Of a stretch of 64,000 bases of DNA, positions 48,192 to 61,057 are shown in pieces. The notes beneath the pieces are model-generated. The model had not been told where the DNA came from. It did no database searches and saw nothing but the letters and a program-made list of their open reading frames with translations. Position numbers and translations under genes: made by a program. Origin of the DNA: a virus (lineage: Duplodnaviria; Heunggongvirae; Uroviricota; Caudoviricetes); IMG/VR virus record IMGVR_UViG_3300049919_000418, positions 22,928-86,927 of that record, one strand, 5' to 3'. Position 1 is the stretch's first letter. Each line of letters begins with the position of its first letter.

Positions 48192-50186
48192 ATGAGCGAC
48201 TTAAAATTACTATTACACAAAAAAATAGGCGGCGTTTGGACCCCGGTAAACGAAACCGATTTCCCAGCGTCGTTTTCTTTTGCGTTTGGAGATCTAACAG
48301 GAAAACCCACGACACTTGCGGGGTATGGAATAAGCGACGCCGCATCGCTTTCCCACACTCACACCTTTGCAAGCCTTACTAGTAAGCCCACAACACTAGC
48401 TGGTTATGGTATTGGTGACGCCGCCAGTGCGGGACACACCCACACTTTCGCCAGCTTAACAAGTAAACCTACGACGCTTGCGGGGTATGGAATAACAGAT
48501 GCGGCTGGAATCAGTCACACCCACACTTTCGCTAGCTTAACAAGTAAACCTACGACGCTTGCGGGGTATGGAATAGTTGACGGAGAAGCGCAAACTTACT
48601 CCGGTTCAAACGCGCCGATCAATACGGGGGATGCAACAATATCCGTCTCTGGAATTACGGTTCCTTCTGGGGCGAATGGGGTATATACCATTTCCGGGGT
48701 TTCCAACGGATATTATAAGTATTCAAAAGGCGGGTATTTTATTGAATTCAATGGTTCATTTTGGGAGTTTGGGCTCACTTCGCCGTATGATCTTTATTTC
48801 TCTAGCGGCTATTTGGAGACACTACCCGAAGACGCGGTATTTTATCCCGAATCAGGAGCATCCGGTTCTCCAATTTTGTTTTCCAATTCCAATAAAAGTA
48901 AGCTTGGGTCGATTTATATTGGAGAAGCGGAGGCGGACGAATCTAGGGCGGCTTATATTAGCACAAGAGATAGCCTTATCGCGGGGTATCGTTGGTTAAA
49001 AGTTCCAACGACAATGATTGATATAGAAAATATTATTATTGGCGGGGATTTAATTGCTTTTAAAGATGACTTAGGTATATCTTCGATAACTGGAAACAAT
49101 ACTTATTATGGTGTAAATACCTTTGCTTCAACACTTGTGGTCGAAAATCAAATCGCATTTGATGCGGCGAGTTCATTTATTTATAATGGTGATTCTGCGG
49201 CAACCCATAGGGCTGCATTAAATGCAGCAAGTCTTTTGAGTAATAATACTTTTGAAGATAATTGTAGTTTTCTTGAAAATGTTAATTTTTATGAGACTGT
49301 ATCTATCAATAGTGGAATTACTTTTGCTGAGGGTGGATATTTTTCATATGGAACAGGCGCAGCGGCTTTCCACAGAGCTTCATTGGGCGCGGCAGGATTG
49401 GAAGACGACAACGTTTTTACTGCGTCGAATTTGTTTTCGGCTGGAGTTGCTTTCGACGCCGGATTTGAGCTTTATGGAACGGCGCATTTTAACTCAGGAC
49501 TTACCTTTGATTATGCTTCTGGAGTTGCGGCAACCCATCGCACAGCGTTAGGGTTGACCATAGGAACGAACGTTCAAGCATACGATGCGGCTCTTGCGGC
49601 GTTGGCGGGTGGAAGTGATTTTGTTCAATTCACAGGTCCAACAACCTCGACTAAGGTTTTTACTCTTCCTAATGCAAATGCAACGTTGGCAAGAACGGAT
49701 GCGGGGCAAACGTTTGTGGGGAACAACATTTTTTCAGGAACAGGAATCTTCAATAGTGACTTAACACTAAACGGTGATACTTTTGTAGCTGGAGTTATGG
49801 AGTTCGACGGAAACGCGCTGTTCTATCAATATGTTTCGTTCAGCAACGATGTTGCTTTTTTTGGAAAATTTCAATTAAACGCCGCGCCAATCCTTTCCGC
49901 GAACTCTATGTCAGGTGCGGGAGCAGTTAGTATTTTCTTGCCAACAACAAAATTAACAACAACAGCGCCGGGACATGCACTTACGTTGGCGAACGGGGAG
50001 GATGGGCAAATTAAGACTATCGCACACGTTGCCAGCAGCGGCAGCGGAACGGCGATTTTAACTCCAGCAACAAAAACCGGATACACGACGATTACCTTCA
50101 ACGCTTTGGGCGATACGGTAACGCTTCAATATTTCACAACGGTTGGTTGGTTGGTGATTGGGTCTAGGGGGGTAACGATTGCATAA
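48192..50186 (+). CDS. Tail fibre protein
   Basis: KPTTLAGYGI-D tail-fibre repeats; ALGLTIGTNVQAYDA motif; beta-rich C-terminus. Confidence 0.8.
   Translation: MSDLKLLLHKKIGGVWTPVNETDFPASFSFAFGDLTGKPTTLAGYGISDAASLSHTHTFASLTSKPTTLAGYGIGDAASAGHTHTFASLTSKPTTLAGYGITDAAGISHTHTFASLTSKPTTLAGYGIVDGEAQTYSGSNAPINTGDATISVSGITVPSGANGVYTISGVSNGYYKYSKGGYFIEFNGSFWEFGLTSPYDLYFSSGYLETLPEDAVFYPESGASGSPILFSNSNKSKLGSIYIGEAEADESRAAYISTRDSLIAGYRWLKVPTTMIDIENIIIGGDLIAFKDDLGISSITGNNTYYGVNTFASTLVVENQIAFDAASSFIYNGDSAATHRAALNAASLLSNNTFEDNCSFLENVNFYETVSINSGITFAEGGYFSYGTGAAAFHRASLGAAGLEDDNVFTASNLFSAGVAFDAGFELYGTAHFNSGLTFDYASGVAATHRTALGLTIGTNVQAYDAALAALAGGSDFVQFTGPTTSTKVFTLPNANATLARTDAGQTFVGNNIFSGTGIFNSDLTLNGDTFVAGVMEFDGNALFYQYVSFSNDVAFFGKFQLNAAPILSANSMSGAGAVSIFLPTTKLTTTAPGHALTLANGEDGQIKTIAHVASSGSGTAILTPATKTGYTTITFNALGDTVTLQYFTTVGWLVIGSRGVTIA
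48303..48581 (+). repeat. 3.5 x 81-nt coding tandem repeat (27 aa, KPTTLAGYGIxDAAxxxHTHTFASLTS)
   Basis: Read directly; 48435-48494 and 48516-48575 are 59/60 identical. Confidence 0.95.
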
Positions 50187-50202
50187 AAAATTAAAAAAAA
50201 GA

Positions 50203-50230
50203 TTGACGGCGCGGAATTTTCTGGTATTCT
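50203..50230 (+). promoter_or_regulatory. sigma70-like promoter, probably giving a leaderless mRNA
   Basis: TTGACG-16-TATTCT with TGn; ATG begins 7 nt after the -10 box. Confidence 0.5.
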
Positions 50231-50236
50231 TCGTCC

Positions 50237-50764
50237 ATGGAATTCAAAAATAAAGATAATACCTGCTACGACACAACTTGCGGCAAAAAAGTTTGGCATT
50301 CGCGAAATGTGGCCACATCGACCACTATTATCCGAACAAAGCCGGAAAATAAGACGAAAATTCAAATTTTGGGAGTCAAGCGCGGCCCGAAAGTTACGAA
50401 TACGGGAAAATACTGCTTTCCGTGTGGATATCTTGATTGGGATGAAAGTGTGCCTCAAGCTGCTGTTCGGGAGATTTACGAGGAAACTGGATTGACAATA
50501 AATCTTCACGAATTGGATTTTGTGGAGTTGGATAGCAGTCCGTTAAAGTTTCTGCAAAACGTAACAGTTCATTTCGTGCATTATTACGTTGGCTCCGATG
50601 AGCCTCACTTGCGCAATTCTGCGGAAGGTGAAGTCGATGAGGTTCGTTGGATTGACTTTGAGGAGGCAATGGAATTGGATTGGGCCTTCGACCATAAATT
50701 AAGGATTAAAACTTTGATTAGAAACATGGAAGAAAACACTCCCAAATTGCCTGAAACAGTGTAA
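50237..50764 (+). CDS. NUDIX hydrolase
   Basis: PCGYLDWDESVPQAAVREIYEETG Nudix box. Confidence 0.85.
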   Translation: MEFKNKDNTCYDTTCGKKVWHSRNVATSTTIIRTKPENKTKIQILGVKRGPKVTNTGKYCFPCGYLDWDESVPQAAVREIYEETGLTINLHELDFVELDSSPLKFLQNVTVHFVHYYVGSDEPHLRNSAEGEVDEVRWIDFEEAMELDWAFDHKLRIKTLIRNMEENTPKLPETV

Positions 50765-50774
50765 TACACTAATA

Positions 50775-50987
50775 GTGAGAATTCGTAACATTTGTGACAT
50801 TGTTGTAACTTCCGGCCCAGAGCGTAGGACTGGAATGGCTGGAAGAGTTTTGGCAAATGAAACACGGGGCGTGTTGGCGATTTTAGCGAATGGAGAAAAG
50901 CTGAGCCTTAAAAACGAACAGTTTGATTATATTTCAGAATTGGAAATTAATTCTTCACAAGAAGAAGAAAAGTGTGTAAAAGAATAA
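50775..50987 (+). CDS. Small hypothetical protein
   Basis: 70 aa, GTG start after a GTGTAA box. Confidence 0.45.
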   Translation: MRIRNICDIVVTSGPERRTGMAGRVLANETRGVLAILANGEKLSLKNEQFDYISELEINSSQEEEKCVKE

Positions 50988-50992
50988 AGGGT

Positions 50993-51070
50993 ATGAAAAT
51001 TAGAAGTAATAGCACAGTGTCCGCGAAATGCGGCTCAACCTTTGGGTTTAATCACCCTTTGGCGGCGTAA
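50993..51070 (+). CDS. 25-aa peptide MKIRSNSTVSAKCGSTFGFNHPLAA
   Basis: Short ORF between a GTGTAA box and a terminator, ending in LAA. Confidence 0.35.
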   Translation: MKIRSNSTVSAKCGSTFGFNHPLAA

Positions 51071-51101
51071 TTATTTTAATTTAATATTTTAATTTTTATT
51101 A

Positions 51102-51131
51102 CCCGCTCTCCAAATAGGAAGCGGGCTTTTT
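51102..51131 (+). terminator. Intrinsic terminator upstream of the tRNA cluster
   Basis: CCCGCT...AGCGGG followed by CTTTTT. Confidence 0.7.
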
Positions 51132-51273
51132 ATTGGAAGGTTTGTCAGTTGTGCCTGAAACAATGAGTGTGAGCTAGAGGCGAGCGGGGTAATGAAACAA
51201 ATACATCGAAACAACCTTTTCATTGGTAGAAATATAAATTCAAATTAGAATATATTCTCCAGTGATAAAATAT

Positions 51274-51346
51274 CCACACTAAACTAATCTAGTGAAAGTG
51301 CGATTCTGAAAAAATCGAAAGGGAGGGGCGGAACCTCCAGTGTGGA
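51274..51346 (+). tRNA. tRNA-Phe(GAA), non-canonical T-loop
   Basis: CCACACT/AGTGTGG acceptor; CGATT-CTGAAAA-AATCG; GGAGG-GGCGGAA-CCTCC. Confidence 0.75.
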
Positions 51347-51362
51347 CTTTTTAAAAAAAGTC

Positions 51363-51391
51363 TTGACAAAGAACAAAAATAAGTGTAAACA
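51363..51391 (+). promoter_or_regulatory. sigma70-like promoter for the tRNA operon
   Basis: TTGACA-17-TAAACA directly before tRNA-fMet. Confidence 0.55.
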
Positions 51392-51394
51392 GGT

Positions 51395-51466
51395 GTGGGG
51401 CAGGTGGTCTGGTTGACCATATTGGGTTCATATCCCGATGAGGCTTGTTCGATTCAGCGCCCCGAA
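51395..51466 (+). tRNA. Initiator-type tRNA-fMet(CAU)
   Basis: TTGGG-TTCATAT-CCCGA (three G-C pairs); 1:72 mismatch; T-stem has a bulge. Confidence 0.7.
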
Positions 51467-51536
51467 CCTAAAACAATGAAATCCAACTGACTATTGGAGA
51501 TTAGATGTTAAGCCTATTGGCTAGTCACCGATAGGA

Positions 51537-51607
51537 AGGACTTTGGTGTAACAGCAACATGCCCGTCGCTTATGGCGGGAGACAAGGTGCAAATCCTTAA
51601 TGTCCAA
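51537..51607 (+). tRNA. tRNA-like gene with 8-nt anticodon loop (CGCTTATG); identity undetermined
   Basis: Acceptor, D- and T-arms present; CCCGT/GCGGG stem. Confidence 0.45.
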
Positions 51608-51608
51608 C

Positions 51609-51694
51609 GGAAAGTTAACCAGTCAGGGATTGGAGCTAATTGCTAATTAGCATGTGGCCTATAAAGCCATAGATTTCGAGTATCTATCTTTCCT
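51609..51694 (+). tRNA. tRNA-Ser(GCU)
   Basis: GCTAA-TTGCTAA-TTAGC; long V-arm; TTCGAGT T-loop. Confidence 0.8.
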
Positions 51695-51705
51695 CTTTTT
51701 ATAAA

Positions 51706-51792
51706 TCTCAGGTGGCGGAATTTGGCAGACGCACTCGACTGTTAATCGAGAAAGGGGAACCTTAACTACTGGATCGTGGCCAGTTCTGAGAG
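51706..51792 (+). tRNA. tRNA-Asn(GUU) with a type II (long V-arm) body
   Basis: CTCGA-CTGTTAA-TCGAG; 17-nt V region with AAGG-GGAA-CCTT; G73. Confidence 0.8.
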
Positions 51793-51837
51793 CGAGTCTT
51801 GACTCCGAATTTTTTATACAGTAGGATCGAGCACAAC

Positions 51838-51909
51838 GCGGGTGTAGCTCAGAGGAAGAGCAAGATGCTTTTAACATCAAGGCCGGGATTTCGAAATTCT
51901 CCGCCCGCA
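51838..51909 (+). tRNA. tRNA-Lys(UUU)
   Basis: Canonical cloverleaf, loop CTTTTAA. Confidence 0.9.
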
Positions 51910-51917
51910 CATATTTA

Positions 51918-51990
51918 GCTAGTGTAGCTCAGAGGCCAGAGCACGCGTCCGATAAATGCGGGGTCGGGATTTCGAAATTCCCCACTAGCA
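51918..51990 (+). tRNA. tRNA-Ile(GAU), C33
   Basis: CGCGT-CCGATAA-ATGCG. Confidence 0.9.
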
Positions 51991-51991
51991 C

Positions 51992-52062
51992 GGGAGATTA
52001 ATTTAATAGTAAAATTACTCGTTTGCACCGAGAGTTCGAGGGAACGTAACCTTCATTTCCTA
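51992..52062 (+). tRNA. tRNA with Ala(UGC) anticodon but no G3:U70
   Basis: GGGAGAT/ATTTCCT acceptor; loop TTTGCAC; T-loop AACGTAA. Confidence 0.65.
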
Positions 52063-52067
52063 CATTT

Positions 52068-52156
52068 GGATCGTGCCGGGGTCGGCCCCCCAAATAGTCT
52101 TGAAAACTATGGTATGCGTAACCACTCGGATAACAGTTCGATGCTGTCACGGTCCT
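52068..52156 (+). tRNA. tRNA-Ser(UGA), atypical D-arm
   Basis: ATAGT-CTTGAAA-ACTAT; long V region. Confidence 0.7.
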
Positions 52157-52166
52157 CCTTTAAAAA

Positions 52167-52239
52167 AGCTCTAGGTCGGAATTGGTTTCCGAAATGATTT
52201 CATAAGTCGTTTAAGCCGGATCGTAACCGGATAGAGCTA
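52167..52239 (+). tRNA. tRNA-Met/Ile2(CAU)
   Basis: AGCTCTA/TAGAGCT; loop TTCATAA; T-loop ATCGTAA. Confidence 0.75.
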
Positions 52240-52240
52240 C

Positions 52241-52331
52241 GGAAAGTTAATCGTCAGGGTGACGGGTCTAATTGGAAATTAGAAGGTTCCAAAATAAAAT
52301 TTGGGATAGATTTCGAGTATCTAGCTTTCCG
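52241..52331 (+). tRNA. tRNA-Ser(GGA)
   Basis: TCTAA-TTGGAAA-TTAGA; long V-arm; G73. Confidence 0.85.
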
Positions 52332-52332
52332 C

Positions 52333-52403
52333 GTCGAATAAATGTTACGGCAGCATGCCTCATTGCCTGTGAGGAAGAGAGGTTTCAATTACCTCATTCG
52401 ATA
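52333..52403 (+). tRNA. tRNA-Gly(GCC), atypical
   Basis: CCTCA-TTGCCTG-TGAGG; U37, A73. Confidence 0.75.
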
Positions 52404-52427
52404 CATTTTTAATTTATTAAAAACAAT

Positions 52428-52501
52428 GACGTATTAGCCAAAAAGAAAGGCAAGGCGCTGCAACCGCCTGATTGAGATTGCAAAATTCTCATACGTCTCC
52501 A
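52428..52501 (+). tRNA. tRNA-Cys(GCA), CCA encoded
   Basis: GACGTAT/ATACGTC, U73, AGGCG-CTGCAAC-CGCCT. Confidence 0.9.
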
Positions 52502-52523
52502 AAAAAAAGATTAATAAAAGATC

Positions 52524-52551
52524 TTGACAAATTCAAAAAGTCCATTATAAT
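52524..52551 (+). promoter_or_regulatory. Near-consensus sigma70 promoter inside the tRNA cluster
   Basis: TTGACA-16-TATAAT. Confidence 0.75.
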
Positions 52552-52564
52552 GGCGGCACACAAA

Positions 52565-52633
52565 GCGCGGTTCGTCTAAGTTAGGACGCCTTCCCCTCCG
52601 GAAGGAAATGAAGTATCAAATCTTCGCCACTCA
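52565..52633 (+). tRNA. Degenerate tRNA-Glu(CUC)-like
   Basis: Glu-type D-arm TCGTCTAAGTTAGGAC; CCTTC-CCCTCCG-GAAGG; two acceptor mismatches. Confidence 0.4.
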
Positions 52634-52637
52634 CAAT

Positions 52638-52706
52638 ACCGGGATATTTTAATGGTAGAAAATCGCAATCAACGCGAAAACGAACGTTCGAATCGTTCTC
52701 CCGGCT
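52638..52706 (+). tRNA. tRNA-like gene with UCA (opal-reading) anticodon
   Basis: TCGC-AATCAAC-GCGA; perfect GAACG-TTCGAAT-CGTTC T-arm; short V. Confidence 0.5.
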
Positions 52707-52709
52707 CAG

Positions 52710-52781
52710 TTTAGAGTAGTATAATGGATATTGCGCCCCGCAAGTAAGAGGGAAATTTTGGTTCGAACCCAAACTCTTAAC
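52710..52781 (+). tRNA. Degenerate tRNA-like gene (loop CAAGTAA, AGU?)
   Basis: Good T-arm and acceptor; anticodon stem only 3 bp. Confidence 0.35.
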
Positions 52782-52786
52782 CTAAT

Positions 52787-52857
52787 GGGCCGGTGTTGTA
52801 ATGGTAGCATCGAAATTTGTGAAATTTCCGGACAGGGATCGTAACCCTGACGGCCCT
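52787..52857 (+). tRNA. tRNA-His(GUG) lacking G-1:C73
   Basis: GAAAT-TTGTGAA-ATTTC; T-loop ATCGTAA; U73. Confidence 0.8.
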
Positions 52858-52862
52858 CATAT

Positions 52863-52932
52863 CGGTTGGTAGCTTATAGAAAAGCGCTCGTGTTGTAATG
52901 AGTAGATGGAGGCTCAAACCCTTCCCTTCCGG
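52863..52932 (+). tRNA. Degenerate tRNA-Thr(UGU)-like, 8-nt loop
   Basis: D- and T-arms present; GCTCG-TGTTGTAA-TGAGT. Confidence 0.35.
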
Positions 52933-53055
52933 CTTACAGTAGTAACAAATAGGAAAGCACTCGATAAGTTCATTGACTTTTTTCAAACAGTAAAAACGAC
53001 AAGTTAGGGTCGCAAGATGCATTGCGCGGATTGAGTTTTTACACTGTATATTTTT

Positions 53056-53128
53056 GGGAGATTAGTTTAATTCTGAAAAACATCCGGCATTTGGCTGGAA
53101 GATGCTGGTTCGAACCCAGCAACTCTCA
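53056..53128 (+). tRNA. tRNA with loop CA-UUU-GG (Lys-reading? identity uncertain)
   Basis: TCCGG-CATTTGG-CTGGA; canonical T-arm; A33, G37. Confidence 0.55.
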
Positions 53129-53165
53129 CATTTGGCAAAATAAATAAATAAAAAAAATAGTATAT

Positions 53166-53243
53166 GGGGGATGGGACTGCTTAGGGTGGTCGTCGCACTT
53201 GCAATGCGAATACAGATCGGGGCAGAACCGATATTCTCCACCA
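53166..53243 (+). tRNA. tRNA-Ala(UGC), G3:U70, CCA encoded
   Basis: GGGGGAT/ATTCTCC; TCGCA-CTTGCAA-TGCGA. Confidence 0.9.
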
Positions 53244-53273
53244 TAATTAATTGATTTTCAGTGAGTTATAAAT

Positions 53274-53348
53274 TATGGTTTAATTTAAATAGTAAAGTCC
53301 CGGAGATTTATACGGGATGATGAAGGATGCAAGGGCCTTCAACCATAG
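53274..53348 (+). tRNA. tRNA-like gene with enlarged anticodon (10 nt) and T (9 nt) loops
   Basis: Perfect TATGGTT/AACCATA acceptor, G73. Confidence 0.4.
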
Positions 53349-53476
53349 CTTTGTTACGTGTAGGTAACAAACCCCTGTCCCAAAACTACAATTGTGGGAC
53401 GACATGAAAAAAGCATCTTGGAGATGCGCTTGCCGTGGAGGCTTGAGAGTTGAAGTTCGAATCTTCATTTTGTGCC

Positions 53477-53581
53477 TTCGGTTCGTGTATAAGTGATCTA
53501 TTTCCCAACTAGTTACAGGAAGTAGAAAAGGGGCAAGGTAGCCCATTATTACTACTTTGGGTTCGATTCCCAAAACCGGAG
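53477..53581 (+). tRNA. 105-nt tRNA-like gene with very long V region
   Basis: TTCGGTT/AACCGGA acceptor, TTGGG-TTCGATT-CCCAA T-arm, G73; anticodon arm irregular. Confidence 0.4.
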
Positions 53582-53682
53582 CATACCTCGCGCCTCTTCG
53601 GCAAATTGCAGCGGTTTAATTTAGGAACAATTTTAAATCAAAGAAAAACAATTGCCGCCATGCGGAATTCGGGGTATTTTAT

Positions 53683-53755
53683 GCGTCGTTCGCCTAGTGG
53701 TATGGCATTTCGCTTCCAACGAAAAATAAGGAGAATTCGATTTTCTCACGGCGCA
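53683..53755 (+). tRNA. tRNA-Gly(UCC), A73
   Basis: TTTCG-CTTCCAA-CGAAA. Confidence 0.9.
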
Positions 53756-53984
53756 CATACGAGAGCTAAAAAGCCTCACATTTATGAAGTTTATTAAAAT
53801 GTTTTTTCACTCACTTTTACTGACTATTATTTTGCCCTGTTTGCTTTGGAGTGTATGCGTCGATTGTAGCGACATTGTTAACTGGTGGCTTGATAGGTTT
53901 TTTAAAATTAAAAATTCATAAAAAGAGCCTCGGCGGCGAAAATTAGTTGTTGACTTTTTGGTGTTTATTTGTAGAGTAGCCGCA

Positions 53985-54665
53985 ATGAAACCGAAATACT
54001 ATATCGTGGGTGGATATGTTCGCGACCTTTTTTTAAATGTAAAAAGTAAGGATGTGGATTTTTGCTGTGAATGCGACTCATACGCTGAAATGAGGGCGGA
54101 CCTTATTTCCAAGGGCGTTGAAATATTTTTGGAGAATGAAAAATTCTTAACAATCAGAGCGCGGCACCCTAAATTTGGTGGAGTTGATTATGTTTGTTGT
54201 CGAGAAGAGGCAGGATACGCTGACGGAAGACGGCCAGACGAAGTAAGGATTGGAACATTGCTATCTGACTTAAGTAGGAGAGACGCGACTTGCAACGCCA
54301 TTGCAATGACCGAAGACGGAGAATTTATTGACCCATTCAATGGAATTGAAGATATTAAAAAGAATCTTTATCGTTGCGTGGGAGACACTTATGAGCGATT
54401 CGAAGAAGATTACCTCAGAATGATTAGGTCCGTGAGGTTTTCTATAACCAAGGGTTTCGCGCTTCACTATGATATTCAGGAAGCTTTTCTTGATAAAAAC
54501 TTGGTAATTAAATTAAAAAACATTAGCCGCGAACGAATTTATGAGGAGTTGAGAAAGTGTTTTGAATTTGATACTAAAAAAACTCTTGACTTCTTCCGCG
54601 AATTTAGCTACTTAGAGCAAGTGATTTTTGGCGAATGCGGAATTAAGCTGGAACCAAAAATTTGA
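53985..54665 (+). CDS. cca: Class II tRNA nucleotidyltransferase (CCA-adding-like, head/neck only)
   Basis: VGGYVRD, DVDF, DLSRRDATCNAIA, DPFNG, EDYLRM; ATG 53985 lies 7 nt after TTGACT-16-TAGAGT. Confidence 0.85.
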   Translation: MKPKYYIVGGYVRDLFLNVKSKDVDFCCECDSYAEMRADLISKGVEIFLENEKFLTIRARHPKFGGVDYVCCREEAGYADGRRPDEVRIGTLLSDLSRRDATCNAIAMTEDGEFIDPFNGIEDIKKNLYRCVGDTYERFEEDYLRMIRSVRFSITKGFALHYDIQEAFLDKNLVIKLKNISRERIYEELRKCFEFDTKKTLDFFREFSYLEQVIFGECGIKLEPKI

Positions 54666-54672
54666 AAGTAAT

Positions 54673-54746
54673 CGGGGTGTAGCTGAGTGGTTATAGCACA
54701 GGTTTTATAAACCTGAGACGCGGGTTCAATTCTTCCGCCATCCCAA
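54673..54746 (+). tRNA. tRNA-Ile(UAU) with C1:A72 mismatch
   Basis: CAGGT-TTTATAA-ACCTG; 2-nt bulge in T-stem. Confidence 0.75.
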
Positions 54747-54754
54747 CTTTTAAG

Positions 54755-54861
54755 GCGCTTGTAGCTTAGGGGTGAAAGCTGCCGTCTCTTTAGCAGAATT
54801 ACATTAACTTGAAATTTTGCAAAATAAACGGTCGATAATGGTTCAACTCCATTCTGGCGCA
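54755..54861 (+). tRNA. tRNA-Lys(CUU) with 35-nt intron in the anticodon loop
   Basis: All arms canonical; GCCGT/ACGGT stem encloses 42 nt. Confidence 0.75.
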
Positions 54862-54879
54862 CATAATAAAATTTAAATA

Positions 54880-55494
54880 ATGAGTAATACAGATAAATAC
54901 AAAGGTGAAAAAGTTTACGTGATTCCGCGTAGCTCGTTGTTGGGCATTGAAGGTGTTCAAGGTTTTCAGCTTTTGGGCGAAGACTTAATTCAGGAGGAAA
55001 TAATTGGACATCCCGATGGATTTTTAATGGATCGCGGGGCGGCGGAAATTGATCCGAATTATAAGCAAATTATTCCTTATTGTATTTTCTTTTGCGGCGA
55101 CAAGGTTTTAAACTATACTCGTGGTAAATCGGGTAACGAATCCCGCCTTCACTCTAAAATTTCTGTTGGAGTTGGTGGGCATATCAACGACGATGGGTTT
55201 GGGTTTTACGACGAAAGCGTTAATCGCGAACTTCAGGAGGAATTAGATTTGAATCAGGAGGATATTATCGGCCATCAAATGATTGGTATTTTAAACGACA
55301 ATACAGCTCTTGTTAGTCAAGTTCACCTTGGAGTCGTTCACCTTATTCAGTTGACAAGCGAAAACGTAACCGCAAAAGAGGATTGTTTGGCAAATCTTAC
55401 ATTTACGAATATTAAAGAATTAAATGGGCCGCTGTATGATCGCCTTGAAGGATGGTCACAATTTATCGTTAGGTATTTGGCGAGTGAAGAGTAA
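54880..55494 (+). CDS. Predicted NUDIX-family phosphoesterase
   Basis: RGAAEIDPNYKQIIPY, E.RLH.K.SVGVGGHIN, RELQEEL, HLGVV. Confidence 0.75.
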   Translation: MSNTDKYKGEKVYVIPRSSLLGIEGVQGFQLLGEDLIQEEIIGHPDGFLMDRGAAEIDPNYKQIIPYCIFFCGDKVLNYTRGKSGNESRLHSKISVGVGGHINDDGFGFYDESVNRELQEELDLNQEDIIGHQMIGILNDNTALVSQVHLGVVHLIQLTSENVTAKEDCLANLTFTNIKELNGPLYDRLEGWSQFIVRYLASEE

Positions 55495-55501
55495 AAACAA
55501 G

Positions 55502-55575
55502 TGGTCCATAGCTCAGTCCGGTAGAGCTTTCGACCGATATTCGAAAAGTCAGTGGTTCGAATCCACTTGGGCCAA
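55502..55575 (+). tRNA. tRNA-Ile(GAU), C33 (second copy)
   Basis: TTCGA-CCGATAT-TCGAA. Confidence 0.85.
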
Positions 55576-55632
55576 CGTAAAAATACATTCGAAAGAGTGT
55601 TATTTTAACCTTTATAATAAAAATTAAAATAT

Positions 55633-55884
55633 ATGAGAGCAAAATTACAAGTCGTGTCGGTTGAAGATGCCAATCTTCCAGATGGTTCCAAACATGCGGA
55701 GCAAGTCAAATTTATGGCTGTTTGCGGCAATGATCCGTTCAAACCCGGTGGATATAGTGAGGATAATACCTTTGCAAAGTGGACGCCAACGGCGAATCTT
55801 GACATGCGAATCAACAACGAAGCATCTTGGGGAACATTGGTTCCGGGGCAGAAGTATTATGTTGATTTTACTTTAACTGAGTAA
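55633..55884 (+). CDS. Conserved phage hypothetical protein
   Basis: MRAK...EDNTFAKWTPTA...PGQKYYVDFT motif. Confidence 0.65.
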   Translation: MRAKLQVVSVEDANLPDGSKHAEQVKFMAVCGNDPFKPGGYSEDNTFAKWTPTANLDMRINNEASWGTLVPGQKYYVDFTLTE

Positions 55885-55892
55885 GAATTTTA

Positions 55893-56224
55893 GGGGGTGA
55901 AATAGTTTCGACGTAACTTTGCACGTTTTCAATTGCAACAAAAGATCCGCTGGATTTAAACAGCAAAAATAATTGGCGAAAATCAATTAGCACTCGCAGC
56001 GTAATGCGAGAACGGCTAGCTTCTCTGTGAAAGCTTGATCCGTTAATTAGCAGATATTTGATGTTTAAGAATTAAACGTATAGGTAGCATCAAGCCGAAA
56101 AATGAAGCGTGGTATATACGATAGAAGCCTAGGGTGTAAGTTCCCAAGTCCAAACTTAAAATTGTTGTAGATGGTTGATTATAAAGAAGTTACGGACGGC
56201 GGGGGCAGTTCCCGCCCATCTCCA
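55893..56224 (+). ncRNA. ssrA: tmRNA; tag (A)GENQLALAA at 55975-56004
   Basis: 5' GGGGGTG...TTTCGAC pairs with 3' CATCTCC-A including G3:U70; tag ORF ends ALAA-TAA. Confidence 0.9.
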
Positions 56225-56225
56225 T

Positions 56226-56750
56226 ATGGTAAATAAAAACGCATCAGAGGGGGCTAGGGCTCTTTTAGTCGCCTTTGGCAAAGGATATAAAGTAACAAAA
56301 TCGGGCGAGGTGATTTCCCCAAATGACATAAACCTGTCTTTATTTAATGATTCACGGGGTTATTTAAATTTCAAAATCTGCATGAATTGCGGGAAGAAGA
56401 AAAACGTTCCCGTCCATCGTTTCCAAGCCTACATGAAATTCGGCTCAAGCATTTTTGATGCTGAAGTTGTAAGGCACTTGGACGGAAATTGCAAAAATAA
56501 TAGTTGGGACAATCTTGAGCTGGGAACCCACAAAGAAAACTCTGCGGATCGCTGTCCTAAAGAGGTTAAGGGGTTTTCAATTGCCGCGTCCAATAAAATT
56601 AGAAGATTTTCCGATTCGGAAATGTCCAATATCAAAGAGTTTTACAAAACAAATAAATCTTATAAAAAAACAATGGAGAAATTCGGAATCTCCACGAAGT
56701 CAACGATGCATCGAATTTTAAATGTTGACTATGTAACGAAAAAAGATTAA
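56226..56750 (+). CDS. HNH homing endonuclease
   Basis: VHRF...VRHLDGNCKNNSWDNLELGTHKEN; ATG 2 nt after the tmRNA end. Confidence 0.85.
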   Translation: MVNKNASEGARALLVAFGKGYKVTKSGEVISPNDINLSLFNDSRGYLNFKICMNCGKKKNVPVHRFQAYMKFGSSIFDAEVVRHLDGNCKNNSWDNLELGTHKENSADRCPKEVKGFSIAASNKIRRFSDSEMSNIKEFYKTNKSYKKTMEKFGISTKSTMHRILNVDYVTKKD

Positions 56751-56755
56751 TTAAT

Positions 56756-56839
56756 GCCGTCCTGCCTGAGAAGTCGAAAGGGCTCGTTTTGTAAGCGAGA
56801 AGGGAAACTACGTCACTGGTGCAAATCCAGTGGGCGGCT
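56756..56839 (+). tRNA. tRNA-Thr(UGU) with long (15-nt) V region
   Basis: GCCGTCC/GGGCGGC; CTCGT-TTTGTAA-GCGAG; ACTGG-TGCAAAT-CCAGT. Confidence 0.75.
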
Positions 56840-56847
56840 CACAAAAA

Positions 56848-57168
56848 ATGAATAATTTCCAAAAAGATGTAAAAAATCTATGGACAACGGATGACCGAAG
56901 CAATCGGTTCTTTTCCGATGATTTAATTAGCAAGTTAGAAACTGCGTCGCGCAATGACCTTGCGGAGAGAATTGAACTTTTAAATAAATTATACAAAGAA
57001 GTTAATCGCCGCGAAAAAATTTATTTGCTTGCGCACGAAGCTTTGCTTGACAACCGTGCATTAGCTGATAAAACAATTGCGAACGAATACCCAGCCGGGT
57101 ATTGCCCGCCAGAAAAGCGGCGCAAATTAATTGATGCATTTGAACAAATTTTAGAACTAGTTAAATGA
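56848..57168 (+). CDS. Hypothetical protein
   Basis: Likely ATG 56848 after the tRNA. Confidence 0.55.
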   Translation: MNNFQKDVKNLWTTDDRSNRFFSDDLISKLETASRNDLAERIELLNKLYKEVNRREKIYLLAHEALLDNRALADKTIANEYPAGYCPPEKRRKLIDAFEQILELVK

Positions 57169-57551
57169 TTTACGAATCTGGAAAAATTGCTCCTTCGCCA
57201 AAAGAGAGAAAAGAAAATAAACTGAAAGGGGACGAGTCTTTTAGTCGCCTTTGTTCTGAGACTTTTGGCAAAAATCTCCCAAATTTCGAAAAACGAGAAT
57301 TGGATTTCAATTCGATGATTTTATTGGCGTGTAAAAACGTAGAGCCTCATCGTGACCCGTTAGTTGTTGATAAAATAACAGGGCTCAGGAGAGCGGCACT
57401 TTTTTGGTTGACAGAAGGAAGGGTGCATCTACAATGCGGAGACGACTTTATAAGAATGAGTTCCGGGGATTATGTAATTTTTGATGATTCAATTGCTCAT
57501 TGCGTAGTGGCCGATAGAAAATGGCGGGGTGCCGCCGCACAATTTATTTAA
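57165..57551 (+). CDS. Cupin/2OG-Fe(II) oxygenase-like protein
   Basis: EPHRD...GDYVIFDDSIAH (HxD...H). Confidence 0.5.
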   Translation: MIYESGKIAPSPKERKENKLKGDESFSRLCSETFGKNLPNFEKRELDFNSMILLACKNVEPHRDPLVVDKITGLRRAALFWLTEGRVHLQCGDDFIRMSSGDYVIFDDSIAHCVVADRKWRGAAAQFI

Positions 57552-57557
57552 AACAAC

Positions 57558-57935
57558 ATGAGATTATTTAATTTTGCAATGTATAATATTTCCCCAATTC
57601 AAGCGGGAATCCAGTGCATTCATAGCTGCGTAGAGTATTCATTGAAATATCCGTTCGACGCCAATTTCAAAGAGTGGGCAAATGAACATAAAACCGTTAT
57701 TATTCTTAGTGGCGGCGGATCGAATGATATGGTAGAGCGTGAAAAAGAGCTTGAATCTTTTAATATTCAGTTCGCTTCGTTTCAAGAGCCGGATTTAAAT
57801 AATTCAATTAGCGCAATCTCATTTTTAGTCGGAGAAAAGATTTACGCTTACGATCCTGAAAAACACGGAATGCGCTCGTCGCGGGAAGTGGAATTTGAAA
57901 CGTATTTGAAATCATTTAAATTGGCCGCGAATTAA
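57558..57935 (+). CDS. Peptidyl-tRNA hydrolase PTH2-like
   Basis: QAGIQCIH, W...HKTVIILSGG, FQEPDLNNSISAISF. Confidence 0.7.
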   Translation: MRLFNFAMYNISPIQAGIQCIHSCVEYSLKYPFDANFKEWANEHKTVIILSGGGSNDMVEREKELESFNIQFASFQEPDLNNSISAISFLVGEKIYAYDPEKHGMRSSREVEFETYLKSFKLAAN

Positions 57936-58066
57936 CATGCTATCCCTTATAGTTAATATTCCTGATTGGATTTTTAACGGGCCATTTTGGCTTGGTTTCG
58001 TAGCGGGCGCGGTTGCGACAATTGGAATTATTTTGTTTTCAATTAGAAACTGGAATCCATTTTAAT

Positions 58067-58285
58067 ATGAAATACTATGAAATAATTTTAAACGATTTTG
58101 TTATTACAGTATGCGCTGAAGATCATTGTGAGCATGCATTTAGGGGAAATTCAAAATACGCTTTTGGAAGGATAACAAAGCAAAAGTTCCAAAGTTACGG
58201 AGATAAGCCTTGGGAAATTCCATTTTCAATGGTTAGATATAGCCCAAGATATATTTTTACAATGGGCTTGTCTCATTGCGAATAA
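58067..58285 (+). CDS. Small hypothetical protein
   Basis: Likely ATG 58067 (MKYYEIIL). Confidence 0.4.
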   Translation: MKYYEIILNDFVITVCAEDHCEHAFRGNSKYAFGRITKQKFQSYGDKPWEIPFSMVRYSPRYIFTMGLSHCE

Positions 58286-58287
58286 AC

Positions 58288-58360
58288 GCCTCGTTAGTGT
58301 TAAAGGCCAACACGCCGCTGTGGTATTGCGGAGGAAAGGGTTCGATTCCCTTACGAGGCT
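58288..58360 (+). tRNA. tRNA-Thr(GGU)
   Basis: GCCTCGT/ACGAGGC; loop GTGGTAT. Confidence 0.85.
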
Positions 58361-58361
58361 C

Positions 58362-58432
58362 GCCGCGATAGTTCATTGGTAGAACGCTATTTTCGTATAT
58401 TAGAGAGGCGGGTTCGATTCCTGTTCGTGGCT
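58362..58432 (+). tRNA. tRNA-Thr(CGU)
   Basis: GCCGCGA/TCGTGGC; loop TTCGTAT. Confidence 0.85.
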
Positions 58433-58433
58433 C

Positions 58434-58976
58434 ATGAATCAATGTTTTGAATGTGATAAAACAGAAAACTTACACAAACACCATGTAATTCCTAGGTCGC
58501 TGGGAGGCGAGCGAACTCTTTTGTTATGTCCTGAATGTCATGGCAAAATACATGGTCTTGATTTTTCAAATCACGGAAATTTAATTAAACTTGGCATCGC
58601 AAAAACAGAAAAAAAATTGGGCAGACCTTGTTTTGGGGAGTTTGATGGGGAAGAAGAAATTATAAAAATGATACGCGCCCTGCGCCGAAAATCAAAGGGA
58701 GGAAAACGTCTTTCGCTTGCTAGGGTTGCCGAAATATTAAATCAAGACGGCGTTCCGTCCAGAGAGGGAAAACCGTGGCGTCCAGAAGTAGTTAGAAGAA
58801 TATTGATGGCGGAAAGCCAAAGACAAAAAGCTAAAAAAGAATTATTAATTAATCATTCCGATATCGTTGAGCTTCTTAAGGAGGGCAAAGAGTCTATAAG
58901 AAACATAGCGAAAATTACAGGTAAAGGCGGATCAACAGTGCAAAGAGTAAAAAAAGAATATGAGTCCAGAATTTAA
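58434..58976 (+). CDS. HNH endonuclease fused to recombinase-type DNA-binding and HTH domains
   Basis: CxxC...HHVIPRSLGG...CPECHGKIH; SLARVAEILNQDGVPSREGKPW; SIRNIAKITGKGGSTVQRV. Confidence 0.75.
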   Translation: MNQCFECDKTENLHKHHVIPRSLGGERTLLLCPECHGKIHGLDFSNHGNLIKLGIAKTEKKLGRPCFGEFDGEEEIIKMIRALRRKSKGGKRLSLARVAEILNQDGVPSREGKPWRPEVVRRILMAESQRQKAKKELLINHSDIVELLKEGKESIRNIAKITGKGGSTVQRVKKEYESRI

Positions 58977-59115
58977 AATAAAGAAAACAATTCTTATGTC
59001 TGAGTTAGAAGCAATGGATGCTTATCCAGAAGGGTTCGAACCCGATTTGGAGTCAGAGGAGGGGATTGAAAAAACTTGGGAATTCTTGACTTTCTGCAAA
59101 AAAAATGAAGAATAA
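58960..59115 (+). CDS. Small acidic protein (51 aa)
   Basis: Read manually: MSPEFKIKK...FCKKNEE. Confidence 0.4.
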   Translation: MSPEFKIKKTILMSELEAMDAYPEGFEPDLESEEGIEKTWEFLTFCKKNEE

Positions 59116-59124
59116 GTTCACAAA

Positions 59125-59215
59125 GCACTCGTAACGGAAAGGTCTTCTAAACCTTAGTCTCAAAATATACCGTAATTGGAAACGACTTATGCTCGTTCAA
59201 ATCGAGTCGGGTGCT
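59125..59215 (+). tRNA. Scrambled tRNA-Arg(UCU): D-arm 5' strand and loop displaced behind the anticodon arm
   Basis: GCACTCG/CGGGTGC; AAGGT-CTTCTAA-ACCTT; GCTCG-TTCAAAT-CGAGT. Confidence 0.65.
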
Positions 59216-59236
59216 CACACCAAACCAAACAAAACA

Positions 59237-59656
59237 ATGAAAAGTAAGCAAATTTTGATCCTTAAGGGGGTTTCAGGAAGTGGAAAATCGTCGCTTGCAA
59301 ACTTGCTTTGCTCGCAGAGGGTCGGCTGGACAATCTGCGAGGCAGATTTATTCTTCTACGATAAGCAAGGTAATTACAATTTTGATCCAGCTAAATTGGG
59401 CTCGGCCCATAAATTTTGTCAAAATCAATTTGTCGATTATTTAAATGAACCGTCCGTTGAGACGATTATCGTTAGCAATACGAATTGCGACCCCAAGGAT
59501 ATGAAATTTTATGAAGATCAGGCGGCTAAAAGAAATATTCGTGTTACTTATTTGGTTATTGAAAGAAGGCATAATAACGTTAATTCACATGGCGTGCCTG
59601 AAGCTACCCTTGATAGGCAAGAGCAAAAACTAAGGAACAGTTTGAAGTTGCGATAA
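59237..59656 (+). CDS. P-loop kinase (AAA_33 / polynucleotide-kinase-like)
   Basis: KGVSGSGKS, ICEAD, IIVSNTN, HGVPEATL; likely ATG 59237. Confidence 0.75.
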   Translation: MKSKQILILKGVSGSGKSSLANLLCSQRVGWTICEADLFFYDKQGNYNFDPAKLGSAHKFCQNQFVDYLNEPSVETIIVSNTNCDPKDMKFYEDQAAKRNIRVTYLVIERRHNNVNSHGVPEATLDRQEQKLRNSLKLR

Positions 59657-59660
59657 AAAC

Positions 59661-59779
59661 GGGAGTTTATTTTAAAGGTAAAATATTGCCACTCGGCAAA
59701 GATTGTGGTTTGAAATTTGTAACGAAGGCTAGCGCAGTAATTACAAACGTAGGATAAGGTTCGATTCCCGCAAGTCCCC
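59661..59779 (+). tRNA. tRNA-like gene with 50-nt insertion in the T-stem; anticodon unclear
   Basis: Removing 59709-59758 restores GTGGG-TTCGATT-CCCGC. Confidence 0.45.
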
Positions 59780-59782
59780 CAT

Positions 59783-61057
59783 ATGTTAAACGAAAAACAA
59801 CAATTATTTTTCAAAGCATTCGAAAGAGGCTCGAATGTTTTCATTTCCGGCCCCGCTGGGGTTGGAAAAAGTTTTTGCATTAAAAAACTGATAGATGATT
59901 TGTCAAAAAATGGCGCGGCATTTGGCGTGACAGCTTCGACAGGAATAGCCGCGCTTTCGATTGGGGGGTCAACCCTGCATAGTTGGTGCGGGATAGGTTT
60001 GGGCGAAGAAAACGCTGAATTTTTAGTTTCCCGGATTCGCAAGATGAAAAATATCAGGGAGCGGATTCAATTGACTAAAATTTTAATTATTGATGAAATA
60101 TCAATGATTTCCGGCGAGTTGATTGATAAAATTGATTTTATCTTTAAAAAAATAAGGGGCAGCCGCAAGCCATTTGGGGGAATGCAGATTATATTTTCCG
60201 GTGACATGTTACAACTGCCAGCGGTATCCAAGGGAAAGCCTATCAAATTTCCTTTTGAGTCGGAAGGGTGGAAAAACGCGAAAGTCGAACTTGTATTGTT
60301 GACCGAGCTTGTTAGGCAGAAGGGCGACAATGAATTTGGCACGATATTAAATGAGATTAGAATCGGCAACAAAGAAGCGGCGCGTAAATTAATTGATAAT
60401 AAAGTTGTTTTTCCTGATGACGGTATTCGCCCTGTCGTGCTTTACTGCCTCAATAAATATGTTGATTCTCATAACGAGGCGGAAATGATGAAACTTCCCG
60501 GAATGGAAAAGAAATATTTTTCACAAAGCAGTGGGGACGCGAAAAGCAGGGAATCACTGGAAAAAAACTGTCCCGCGCCGCCAGTTTTAAAACTCAAGGT
60601 TGGAGCGCAGGTTATATTGTTGAAAAATCTGGATCAAGAATTGGGGCTTGTAAATGGATCGTTAGGGGTCGTTGTAAGCCTTGCTAACGAGTCTGTGGTA
60701 GTCAAGTTTGAAAGCGGAGAGCAAACCCTCTCTAAGGGGGTCTGGGAGCTTAAAAAGCAATCTATAGAGGCGGGGGGTTCGACGAAATTCAAGGTGGCGG
60801 CAACAGTAAGCCAAATCCCTCTTAAACTAGCATATAGTTTGTCAATACATCGCTCTCAGGGCCAAACATTAAGTAGGGTAGTTTTGGACGCAACGGGGGC
60901 ATTTGAGGACGGGCTTATCTACGTTGGATTGTCTCGTGTTGAAAATCAAAATAATATAATTATTAAAAATTTAAATATTAATAAAATCACCGCCAACCCA
61001 AAGGCCCTTGAATTTTATGGCTATTCTGTTCCGAGTGACGATCCATTCGATTTTTAG
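59783..61057 (+). CDS. Pif1-like SF1B helicase
   Basis: GPAGVGKS, TASTGIAA, IDEISMI, GDMLQLP, LVNGSLG, SIHRSQGQTL. Confidence 0.9.
   Translation: MLNEKQQLFFKAFERGSNVFISGPAGVGKSFCIKKLIDDLSKNGAAFGVTASTGIAALSIGGSTLHSWCGIGLGEENAEFLVSRIRKMKNIRERIQLTKILIIDEISMISGELIDKIDFIFKKIRGSRKPFGGMQIIFSGDMLQLPAVSKGKPIKFPFESEGWKNAKVELVLLTELVRQKGDNEFGTILNEIRIGNKEAARKLIDNKVVFPDDGIRPVVLYCLNKYVDSHNEAEMMKLPGMEKKYFSQSSGDAKSRESLEKNCPAPPVLKLKVGAQVILLKNLDQELGLVNGSLGVVVSLANESVVVKFESGEQTLSKGVWELKKQSIEAGGSTKFKVAATVSQIPLKLAYSLSIHRSQGQTLSRVVLDATGAFEDGLIYVGLSRVENQNNIIIKNLNINKITANPKALEFYGYSVPSDDPFDF

Follow-up and report, generated by a model that had tools for sequence, protein, structure and literature searches.

The locus described in this work raises the question of whether, and by which route, a phage tRNA gene with a short hairpin inserted in its anticodon might still yield a decoding tRNA. 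To our knowledge, bacteria and their viruses are thought to have self-splicing tRNA introns only; short inserts that are not ribozymes have been described in phage tRNAs on one or two occasions, with no explanation given.

A phage tRNA gene with a split anticodon

The window, that is the whole stretch of 64,000 nucleotides analysed, corresponds to bases 22928-86927 of the IMG/VR virus contig IMGVR_UViG_3300049919_000418, and the coordinates of features are window positions unless stated otherwise. The source contig is 166 kb long, with a G+C content of 42% and a completeness of about 78%. On its plus strand, between 51.4 and 58.4 kb of the window, it carries a tRNA cluster with at least 17 tRNA genes and a tmRNA. 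The interrupted gene (hereinafter gene X) and its parts are the following:

54755-54861, plus strand: interrupted tRNA gene X, precursor of 107 nt (Rfam RF00005, ARAGORN in intron mode, six assemblies)
54755-54788, plus strand: 5' exon up to C34, with the acceptor strand, the D arm, the 5' strand of the anticodon stem (54781-54785) and the loop bases CUC (54786-54788), as drawn from the cloverleaf
54789-54824, plus strand: hairpin insert including the closing pair U54789-A54824 (RNAfold)
54825-54861, plus strand: 3' exon, with the loop bases UAA (54825-54827), the 3' strand of the anticodon stem (54828-54832), the variable loop, the T arm, the 3' strand of the acceptor stem and the discriminator A

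The Rfam tRNA model (RF00005) aligns with gene X end to end (model positions 1-71) with a score of 46.6 bits, the gathering score being 29 bits, so that the cloverleaf belongs to the tRNA family, with 39 nt inserted in the anticodon loop relative to the model. ARAGORN, when run with intron search, recognises a 73-nt tRNA plus a 35-nt insert; in its default mode it gives no tRNA call at 54755-54861. Both programs agree with the sequence-only reading of this DNA, which had described a phage tRNA gene with a 35-nt insert and 42 nt enclosed by the anticodon stem, and had placed it correctly. The same reading regarded all the arms as canonical, and this holds, together with the core bases, for the D arm (4 bp), the anticodon arm (5 bp, 54781-54785 with 54828-54832) and the T arm (5 bp), but the seven pairs of the acceptor stem include one U.U mismatch. 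The variable loop has 4 nt, the discriminator A is base 54861, and CCA is not encoded.

The 107 nt of gene X are identical, letter by letter, in L009, L139, L140, L141 and L142, which come from three JGI metagenomes and two Logan runs, and hence in six assemblies including the source contig. This identity implies that the insert is real, rather than an assembly artefact, and that it is fixed in a circulating phage. Sites where this phage occurs are sampled in JGI 3300046087, 3300046362 and 3300048690 and in the runs SRR35440108, SRR35512493 and SRR35627170. Within the 166-kb contig the insert is single-copy. Gene X is a genuine tRNA gene of the phage, with a 35-nt hairpin dividing its anticodon.

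Some other elements of the cluster were observed as well. A tmRNA lies at 55893-56227 on the plus strand (Rfam 54.9 bits, cut-off 47) and was missed by ARAGORN in the window; in the relatives L008, L010 and L273, ARAGORN finds tmRNAs with the tag DENQYALAA in the same cluster. Three matches to the tRNA model that ARAGORN missed, all on the plus strand, are located at 51992-52062, 52638-52706 and 52863-52932 (38, 44 and 31 bits, respectively); they are A/U-rich, atypical phage tRNAs, the first of which has, by eye, a UGC (Ala-type) anticodon loop.

Fold of the insert and the bulge-helix-bulge reading

The anticodon arm together with the insert (54781-54832) folds with -14.1 kcal/mol according to RNAfold (z = -4.78), the minimum-energy structure coincides with the centroid, and none of 200 shuffled arms folded equally well. 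Above the anticodon stem there is a symmetric 3x3 internal loop, formed by CUC (54786-54788) and UAA (54825-54827), followed by three U-A pairs at the base of the insert (UUU 54789-54791 with AAA 54822-54824), a 1x1 A.A mismatch (54792/54821) and a helix of 8 bp (54793-54800/54813-54820) closed by an apical region of 12 nt. The 7-bp helix previously noticed at 54793-54799/54814-54820 does exist, with one further pair that brings it to 8 bp; the two 7-nt flanks noticed beside it are not single-stranded, as UUU pairs with AAA. Since these flanking stretches are largely paired, gene X has no staggered 3-nt bulges.

This bears directly on the interpretation that had been advanced for the locus, namely an archaeal/eukaryal-style bulge-helix-bulge (BHB) intron at position 37/38, cut by an EndA-like endonuclease and joined by RtcB or Rnl, a reading to which we assign hardly any chance of being correct. 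BHB introns, processed by EndA/TSEN plus RtcB or Trl1, do share with the insert a short length, the location in the anticodon loop, the dependence on proteins, and recognition of the structure with a free sequence. Moreover, the 7 + 7 nt around the 7-bp helix superficially resemble the 4+3 spacing, and Rnl-type ligases are encoded in the contig. However, BHB introns are defined by staggered 3-nt bulges, a 4-bp central helix and the 37/38 position. In gene X the central helix is only 2/4 paired, which is the chance level, and the supposed bulge bases pair in the lowest-energy fold. A script that examined every frame, with at least 3/4 central pairs, 2-bp flanks and either bulge order, found no BHB-like frame excising 35 nt from gene X, or 34 nt from its counterpart in the related phage L013 described below, so the 4+3 geometry was not recovered. 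Furthermore, excision at 37/38 would leave U37, and L013 does not share this register. Finally, PF01974 (EndA) and PF01139 (RtcB), which matched the control genomes, had no match in the contig at E <= 1. None of the features of a BHB intron (two 3-nt bulges with a 4-bp helix, position 37/38, EndA plus an RtcB-type or Trl1-type ligase) was found for gene X, and we rejected a BHB/EndA intron on the grounds of the symmetric 3x3 loop with a closed hairpin, the lack of a fitting frame, and the absence of EndA and RtcB from the contig.

Self-splicing finds no more room in this structure. The insert had been judged far too short for a group I intron, and its 35 nt without any Rfam intron match confirm this judgement; Rfam ribozyme and intron families gave no match on 54740-54875 at E <= 10, nor on 50000-60000 at E <= 1. 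Group I tRNA introns resemble the insert of gene X in that they lie in or next to the anticodon of bacterial-type tRNAs (the cyanobacterial tRNA-Leu(UAA) intron splits U34 from A35), their presence varies, and there are hints of exon co-conversion; they differ from it in a core (P3-P8) of about 200 nt or more. A ribozyme, or another known Rfam family, was therefore rejected for want of a match. Two further candidates were discarded: a terminator hairpin, given that the U tract is absent and the terminator listing has no site in the insert, and a repeated palindromic element, given that the insert is single-copy in the contig.

Related phages and possible excision registers

The genes flanking gene X provide synteny anchors, and homologs of the CCA enzyme were used as a route to contigs of related phages:

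53958-54665, plus strand: short CCA-adding enzyme of 235 aa, directly upstream (Pfam PolyA_pol 77 bits; phrog tRNA nucleotidyltransferase)
54673-54747, plus strand: tRNA-Ile(UAU), 7 nt upstream of gene X, synteny anchor (ARAGORN; Rfam 57.8 bits)
54880-55494, plus strand: NUDIX-like phosphoesterase of 204 aa, directly downstream, second synteny anchor (52% identical to L003:5872-6507)

In L003-L006, whose CCA enzyme is 69% identical to the one beside gene X, the order of genes is CCA enzyme, tRNA-Ile(UAU), a second tRNA and the NUDIX-like gene, and the second tRNA is uninterrupted, with the loop CUCAUAA. L003 and the source contig share about 90% identity in tRNA-Ile, the very same spacer between it and the tRNA that follows, and 52% identity in the NUDIX-like protein. 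This synteny makes gene X the positional ortholog of an ordinary tRNA(CAU), and the uninterrupted state of L003 at the same place implies that the insert was gained or lost on an otherwise conserved, and presumably used, gene. L013, with a CCA enzyme 57% identical, is an outgroup inside the same well-supported clade, L003 being the closer sister; in L013 the tRNA directly after tRNA-Ile(UAU) bears a 34-nt insert. Thus, the insert is present in gene X and in L013 and absent from the ortholog in L003-L006. The tRNA-Ile(UAU) of L013 (L013:6945-7034) itself measures 90 nt and has a long additional arm in its variable region.

As regards structure, ARAGORN places the anticodon stem of L013 differently, and the homologous parse was used for the comparison. 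The two stems differ by one compensatory pair (GCCGA/UCGGU in L013 vs GCCGU/ACGGU in gene X), and the flanks of the insert, CUCU and AUAA, are identical. The L013 copy folds into a perfect cloverleaf (z = -4.68), and its arm has the same architecture, that is 5 bp, the CUC/UAA loop, 3 bp and a purine.A mismatch, followed by a helix of 10 bp. The helix sequence of the insert is unrelated between the two phages, and the apical part has no shared sequence; nevertheless, a covariance model of gene X recovers the L013 copy over its full length with 44.7 bits. In a structure-guided alignment, which was fitted to the structure and contains two sequences (two lineages) only, 98.4% of the cells pair, vs 32-50% when the partners are slid, and 11/11 pairs of the insert helix are kept, with 7/11 changed on both sides. 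The L013 copy stays below the Rfam tRNA threshold, with no match at E <= 1, and is matched by ARAGORN in intron mode and by the model built on gene X; it also carries a second insertion, a 10-nt GAAA-capped hairpin in the variable loop. Taken as sequence comparisons, these data give good support to the idea that the shape of the insert may be under selection.

The same data are hard to reconcile with the improbable case of a gene disabled by an insertion at the DNA level (of a short palindrome, or of what is left of a larger mobile insert) and tolerated as host tRNAs or other tRNAs of the phage cover its codon. Such a loss might be affordable, as the phage has Lys(UUU) twice, Ile(UAU) and a weak Met(CAU) call, and homing-endonuclease HNH genes do lie in the cluster, at 56175-56750 and 58434-58976; besides, the anticodon stem tracks the insert and the acceptor stem tracks the phylogeny, which suggests DNA-level transfer of the arm with the insert. 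However, decay would be expected, yet the arms pair in both phages, the flanks are identical and the pairing survives seven double changes; moreover, the insert is not repeated in the contig and is fixed in the six assemblies. A decaying pseudogene is unlikely because arms, loop bases and hairpin pairing have been kept across a deep divergence, and conserved loop bases around a conserved hairpin whose sequence varies freely would be more readily expected of a removable element than of a dead gene.

If the insert is removable, the place of the cuts is constrained. We removed 35 nt from gene X and 34 nt from L013 in all registers, among which are:

3 bases kept 5': gene X CUCAUAA (CAU); L013 CUCAUAA (CAU)
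4 bases kept 5': gene X CUCUUAA (CUU); L013 CUCUUAA (CUU)
5 bases kept 5' (ARAGORN register): gene X CUCUUAA (CUU); L013 CUCUCAA (CUC)
6 bases kept 5' (the 37/38 position of the sequence-only reading): gene X CUCUUUA, which leaves U37; L013 CUCUCUA (CUC)

The last of these shows why position 37/38 could not be upheld, CUCUUUA in gene X corresponding to an anticodon CUC in L013. Only CUC/AUAA (CAU) and CUCU/UAA (CUU) give an identical canonical loop, with U33 and A37, in both phages. In gene X they correspond to the candidate 35-nt excision of 54789-54823, in which A54824 joins the 3' exon and the anticodon is CAU, or of 54790-54824, in which U54789 joins the 5' exon and the anticodon is CUU. 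As only two registers are shared, the cuts, if the insert is excised, flank the closing U.A pair, at 34/35 or 35/36, inside the anticodon. In processing hairpins of the T7 R1.1 type, RNase III cuts both strands of a helix of about 20 bp at a fixed distance, which leaves a 2-nt 3' overhang. Modelled on gene X, a 35-nt product with a 2-nt 3' overhang and CUCU + UAA as exon ends is obtained only if A54792 is bulged, and in L013 a C-G pair fixes the register and the overhang is 1 nt; RNase III-like cutting may therefore be a poor fit to the geometry of the two copies.

The choice between the two registers coincides with the question of which tRNA is encoded, and here the evidence points both ways. 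On the side of CAU stand the positional ortholog in L003, an uninterrupted tRNA(CAU), and the fact that, among 237 distinct phage tRNAs, the tRNA bodies most similar to gene X are those of CAU tRNAs; the acceptor stem is identical to that of L003 at 11/14 positions and to that of L013 at 6/14. On the side of CUU, the anticodon stem is that of an uninterrupted phage tRNA-Lys(CUU) in L019, and the 3' part of the L013 copy resembles phage tRNA-Lys (27 nt, E = 0.09, blastn against cultured phages); the anticodon stem of gene X is identical to that of L013 at 8/10 positions and to that of L003 at 2/10. The source contig has no other Lys(CUU) gene, and several of its relatives have one. Lysine identity had previously been given as a fact; the ortholog in L003 reads CAU, yet the anticodon stem matches phage tRNA-Lys(CUU), so that gene X may possibly be a tRNA-Lys(CUU). 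The mosaic of stems might derive from DNA-level transfer of the arm with the insert, or possibly from selection on the stem by a processing factor. The spliced arm, GCCGNCTC[A/T]TAANCGGT, occurs in none of 201 genomes from the phylum that probably includes the host, and in GTDB it has chance, non-tRNA matches only.

Candidate processing, its enzymes and known systems

On the whole, we tentatively favour, with a probability of about 0.42, the reading that the insert is a protein-spliced hairpin mini-intron, neither of the BHB/EndA type nor a ribozyme. We prefer it because the sister L003 has a plain decoding tRNA at the same place, because all the bases of a canonical loop are preserved in gene X and in L013, and because only the bases on the exon side and the geometry of the hairpin base are conserved, as for a substrate recognised by its shape. 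The precursor would be a cloverleaf whose anticodon stem runs on through the 3x3 loop, the U.A pair, two further pairs and the purine.A mismatch into a helix of 8-10 bp; a protein endonuclease, of the host or of the phage, would cut both strands beside the closing U.A pair, and a phage ATP-dependent RNA ligase would then seal the halves, giving a 7-nt loop that might be either CUCAUAA (CAU; Met, or Ile after lysidine) or CUCUUAA (CUU; Lys). We know of no bacterial or phage enzyme that excises such a hairpin.

This last point also speaks for a different and rather unlikely explanation, according to which gene X is left unspliced and gives a stable, non-decoding RNA of tRNA shape with a long anticodon arm, which might serve as a decoy, a sponge or a handle for some enzyme that binds tRNAs; candidate partners would be the neighbouring CCA enzyme, modification enzymes and anticodon nucleases. 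RNAs C and D of T4 (rnaC/rnaD), which belong to the tRNA cluster and are processed like tRNAs without decoding, are a model for it, although gene X differs from these small stable RNAs in its full canonical tRNA body and in having all the anticodon-loop bases. The architecture and the loop bases that both phages conserve might just as well form a site for protein binding, the L013 copy with its extra variable-loop hairpin fails the Rfam tRNA threshold, and odd, non-decoding tRNA look-alikes are common in phage tRNA clusters (the L020 family, L018, L034 and L036). On the other hand, an ordinary decoding tRNA is kept at the exact place in the sister L003, the bases U33, A37 and A38 of a canonical 7-nt loop are kept in both phages, and the hairpin apex shares no sequence between gene X and L013, so that no common site for a sequence-specific ligand is visible.

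The mini-intron reading requires enzymes for cutting and for sealing. That splicing would have to rely on proteins had already been argued from the letters of the DNA, and this holds; the contig has candidates for both activities:

G000:C1:105308-106342 (L001:1003-2037), outside the window: fusion of an HNH nuclease and an Rnl2-type ligase, 344 aa (PF09414 98 bits; phrog_24030 442 bits, full length)
G000:C1:114561-115922 (L002:715-2076), outside the window: second RNA ligase, 453 aa, with an N-terminal PHA02142 OB fold and PF09414
G000:C1:116712-117347 (L002:2866-3501), outside the window: RlaP-like Pol-beta nucleotidyltransferase, two genes (about 790 bp) downstream of the second ligase
59189-59656, plus strand: P-loop kinase, 155 aa, with a weak polynucleotide-kinase match (phrog_2071 ATPase 121 bits; phrog_505 polynucleotide kinase 39 bits)

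Both ligases are of the ATP-dependent type. The fusion has intact CxxC...HH...N...CxxCH and KxDG motifs, and a sequence search for a solved structure found none. The second ligase and the RlaP-like gene resemble an RNA-repair module, and the kinase, whose Pfam AAA_33 score of 25.6 bits is under the cut-off, is possibly an end-healing enzyme, to judge from its sequence. In the profile search of the 166-kb contig (about 78% complete), EndA, RtcB and Rnl1 had no match at E <= 1. The assumption that EndA is lacking is confirmed for this contig (PF01974), and the search for EndA-like, RtcB or Rnl genes suggested along with the BHB idea gave a divided answer, with EndA, RtcB and Rnl1 not found, and two RNA ligases found, one of them Rnl2-type and fused to an HNH nuclease. 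The ligases, RlaP and the kinase are a common phage RNA-repair kit, and nothing ties this kit to gene X.

HNH cuts leave 3'-OH/5'-phosphate ends, as required by Rnl2-type ligases, and the fusion might therefore perform both cutting and sealing. More generally, it is possible, though doubtful, that phages possess a protein-only tRNA splicing unrelated to EndA/BHB, based on an endonuclease that recognises a hairpin stacked, across the 3x3 loop, on the anticodon stem, on cuts beside the closing U.A pair within the anticodon, and on Rnl2-type resealing; the cut register would then set decoding, either of AUG/AUA (CAU) or of AAG (CUU). We know of no functional test of HNH-Rnl2 fusions. Fusions of this kind have already been described, with a different interpretation and no link to introns (PMC7824862).

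The insert of gene X belongs with the poorly understood phage tRNA introns. "Enigmatic" introns have been reported in tRNA genes of the Lak megaphages (Devoto et al. 2019, PMC6784885), and intronic sequences in tRNAs of recoded jumbo phages (PMC13037316; for phages of these groups see also PMC8346664). The Lak introns, as described, are likewise short, non-ribozyme inserts in the anticodon loop of phage tRNAs, conserved in some relatives and absent from others, visible to tRNA finders in intron mode only and given no splicing route; gene X shows the same pattern, with a short anticodon-loop insert that is present in L013 and absent in L003-L006. The Lak phages are very large phages of the gut that use alternative genetic codes, and the one Lak intron depicted, in tRNA-Thr(TGT), is itself tRNA-shaped, whereas the phage carrying gene X is a 166-kb freshwater T4-like phage with the standard code, and a simple hairpin of 35 nt interrupts the anticodon itself, at 34/35 or 35/36. 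Plain hairpin inserts in tRNAs of T4-like phages, and a mechanism for splicing them, were not found in the literature searched.

A second point of comparison is the break and repair of tRNA-Lys in T4 infection, in which the host anticodon nuclease PrrC cuts, and the phage Pnkp and Rnl1 repair. This system has been reviewed (PMC3400036, PMC7824862). It shows a T4-like phage mending a break in the anticodon loop by means of a kinase and a ligase that it encodes, and ligases, RlaP and a PNK-like kinase are present here; however, the T4 case concerns a single nick in a mature tRNA from which nothing is removed, and Rnl1 is absent from the present contig.

With respect to these systems, gene X adds a simple and well-defined substrate, in which a single hairpin sits on a 3x3 loop, comparative support for selection on this shape, and a limit on the cut sites, that is two registers, both inside the anticodon. 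If the insert is spliced, phage-infected bacteria would harbour an undescribed pathway of RNA cutting and rejoining, which could gate tRNA identity or protect the tRNA against anticodon nucleases of the host; otherwise, phages would maintain tRNA-framed hairpin RNAs for another purpose.

The insert is known in two lineages only, that of gene X and L013. Exact and degenerate DNA patterns searched in IMG/VR, JGI metagenomes and GTDB gave nothing or chance matches; searches for related loci run with each of the two neighbouring proteins singly found none; and ARAGORN in intron mode revealed no further carrier in 80 IMG/VR loci with related CCA enzymes. The covariance model of gene X, applied to 70 of these 80 loci and to nine earlier loci, retrieved the L013 copy and ordinary tRNAs only. 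The NUDIX-like loci (47 from IMG/VR and 80 from metagenomes) proved to be from distant phages or bacterial chromosomes, with no such tRNA, and blastn of gene X and of the L013 copy against cultured phages gave short tRNA-arm matches only. A scan for the pattern from D arm to T arm detected over-long phage tRNAs in the L020 family, L018, L034, L036 and L037, with folds unlike that of gene X.

These searches also brought to light other unusual tRNA genes. The L020 family (for instance L020:845-927) consists of widespread, 101-nt tRNA-shaped genes of phages of about 150 kb, in which the stretch closed by the anticodon stem AUCCA/UGGAU is about 41 nt long and contains small hairpins, a fold unlike that of gene X; its members include L017, L020-L024 and L027-L033 among others, on many IMG/VR contigs, most of which are from 3300045988. 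An ARAGORN call in intron mode of a "tRNA-Thr(UGU)" with a 25-nt insert at an odd position (G000:C1:95702-95818), directly after a tRNA-Leu(AAG), is probably spurious. L019 (IMGVR_UViG_3300033070_000522) carries, on the complementary strand at 3988-4145, 5245-5411 and 5756-5911, the genes for Lys(UUU), Asn(GUU) and Lys(CUU) with inserts of 58-90 nt (ARAGORN -i), which may be tRNA-shaped introns as in the Lak phages. Lastly, the NUDIX-like gene at 54880-55494 has homologs 50-56% identical (L190-L270) on chromosomes binned as Verrucomicrobia (Luteolibacter), often beside a tRNA-Ala(GGC), and these sequence similarities hint at a host-derived origin of the gene and at the host group of the phage.
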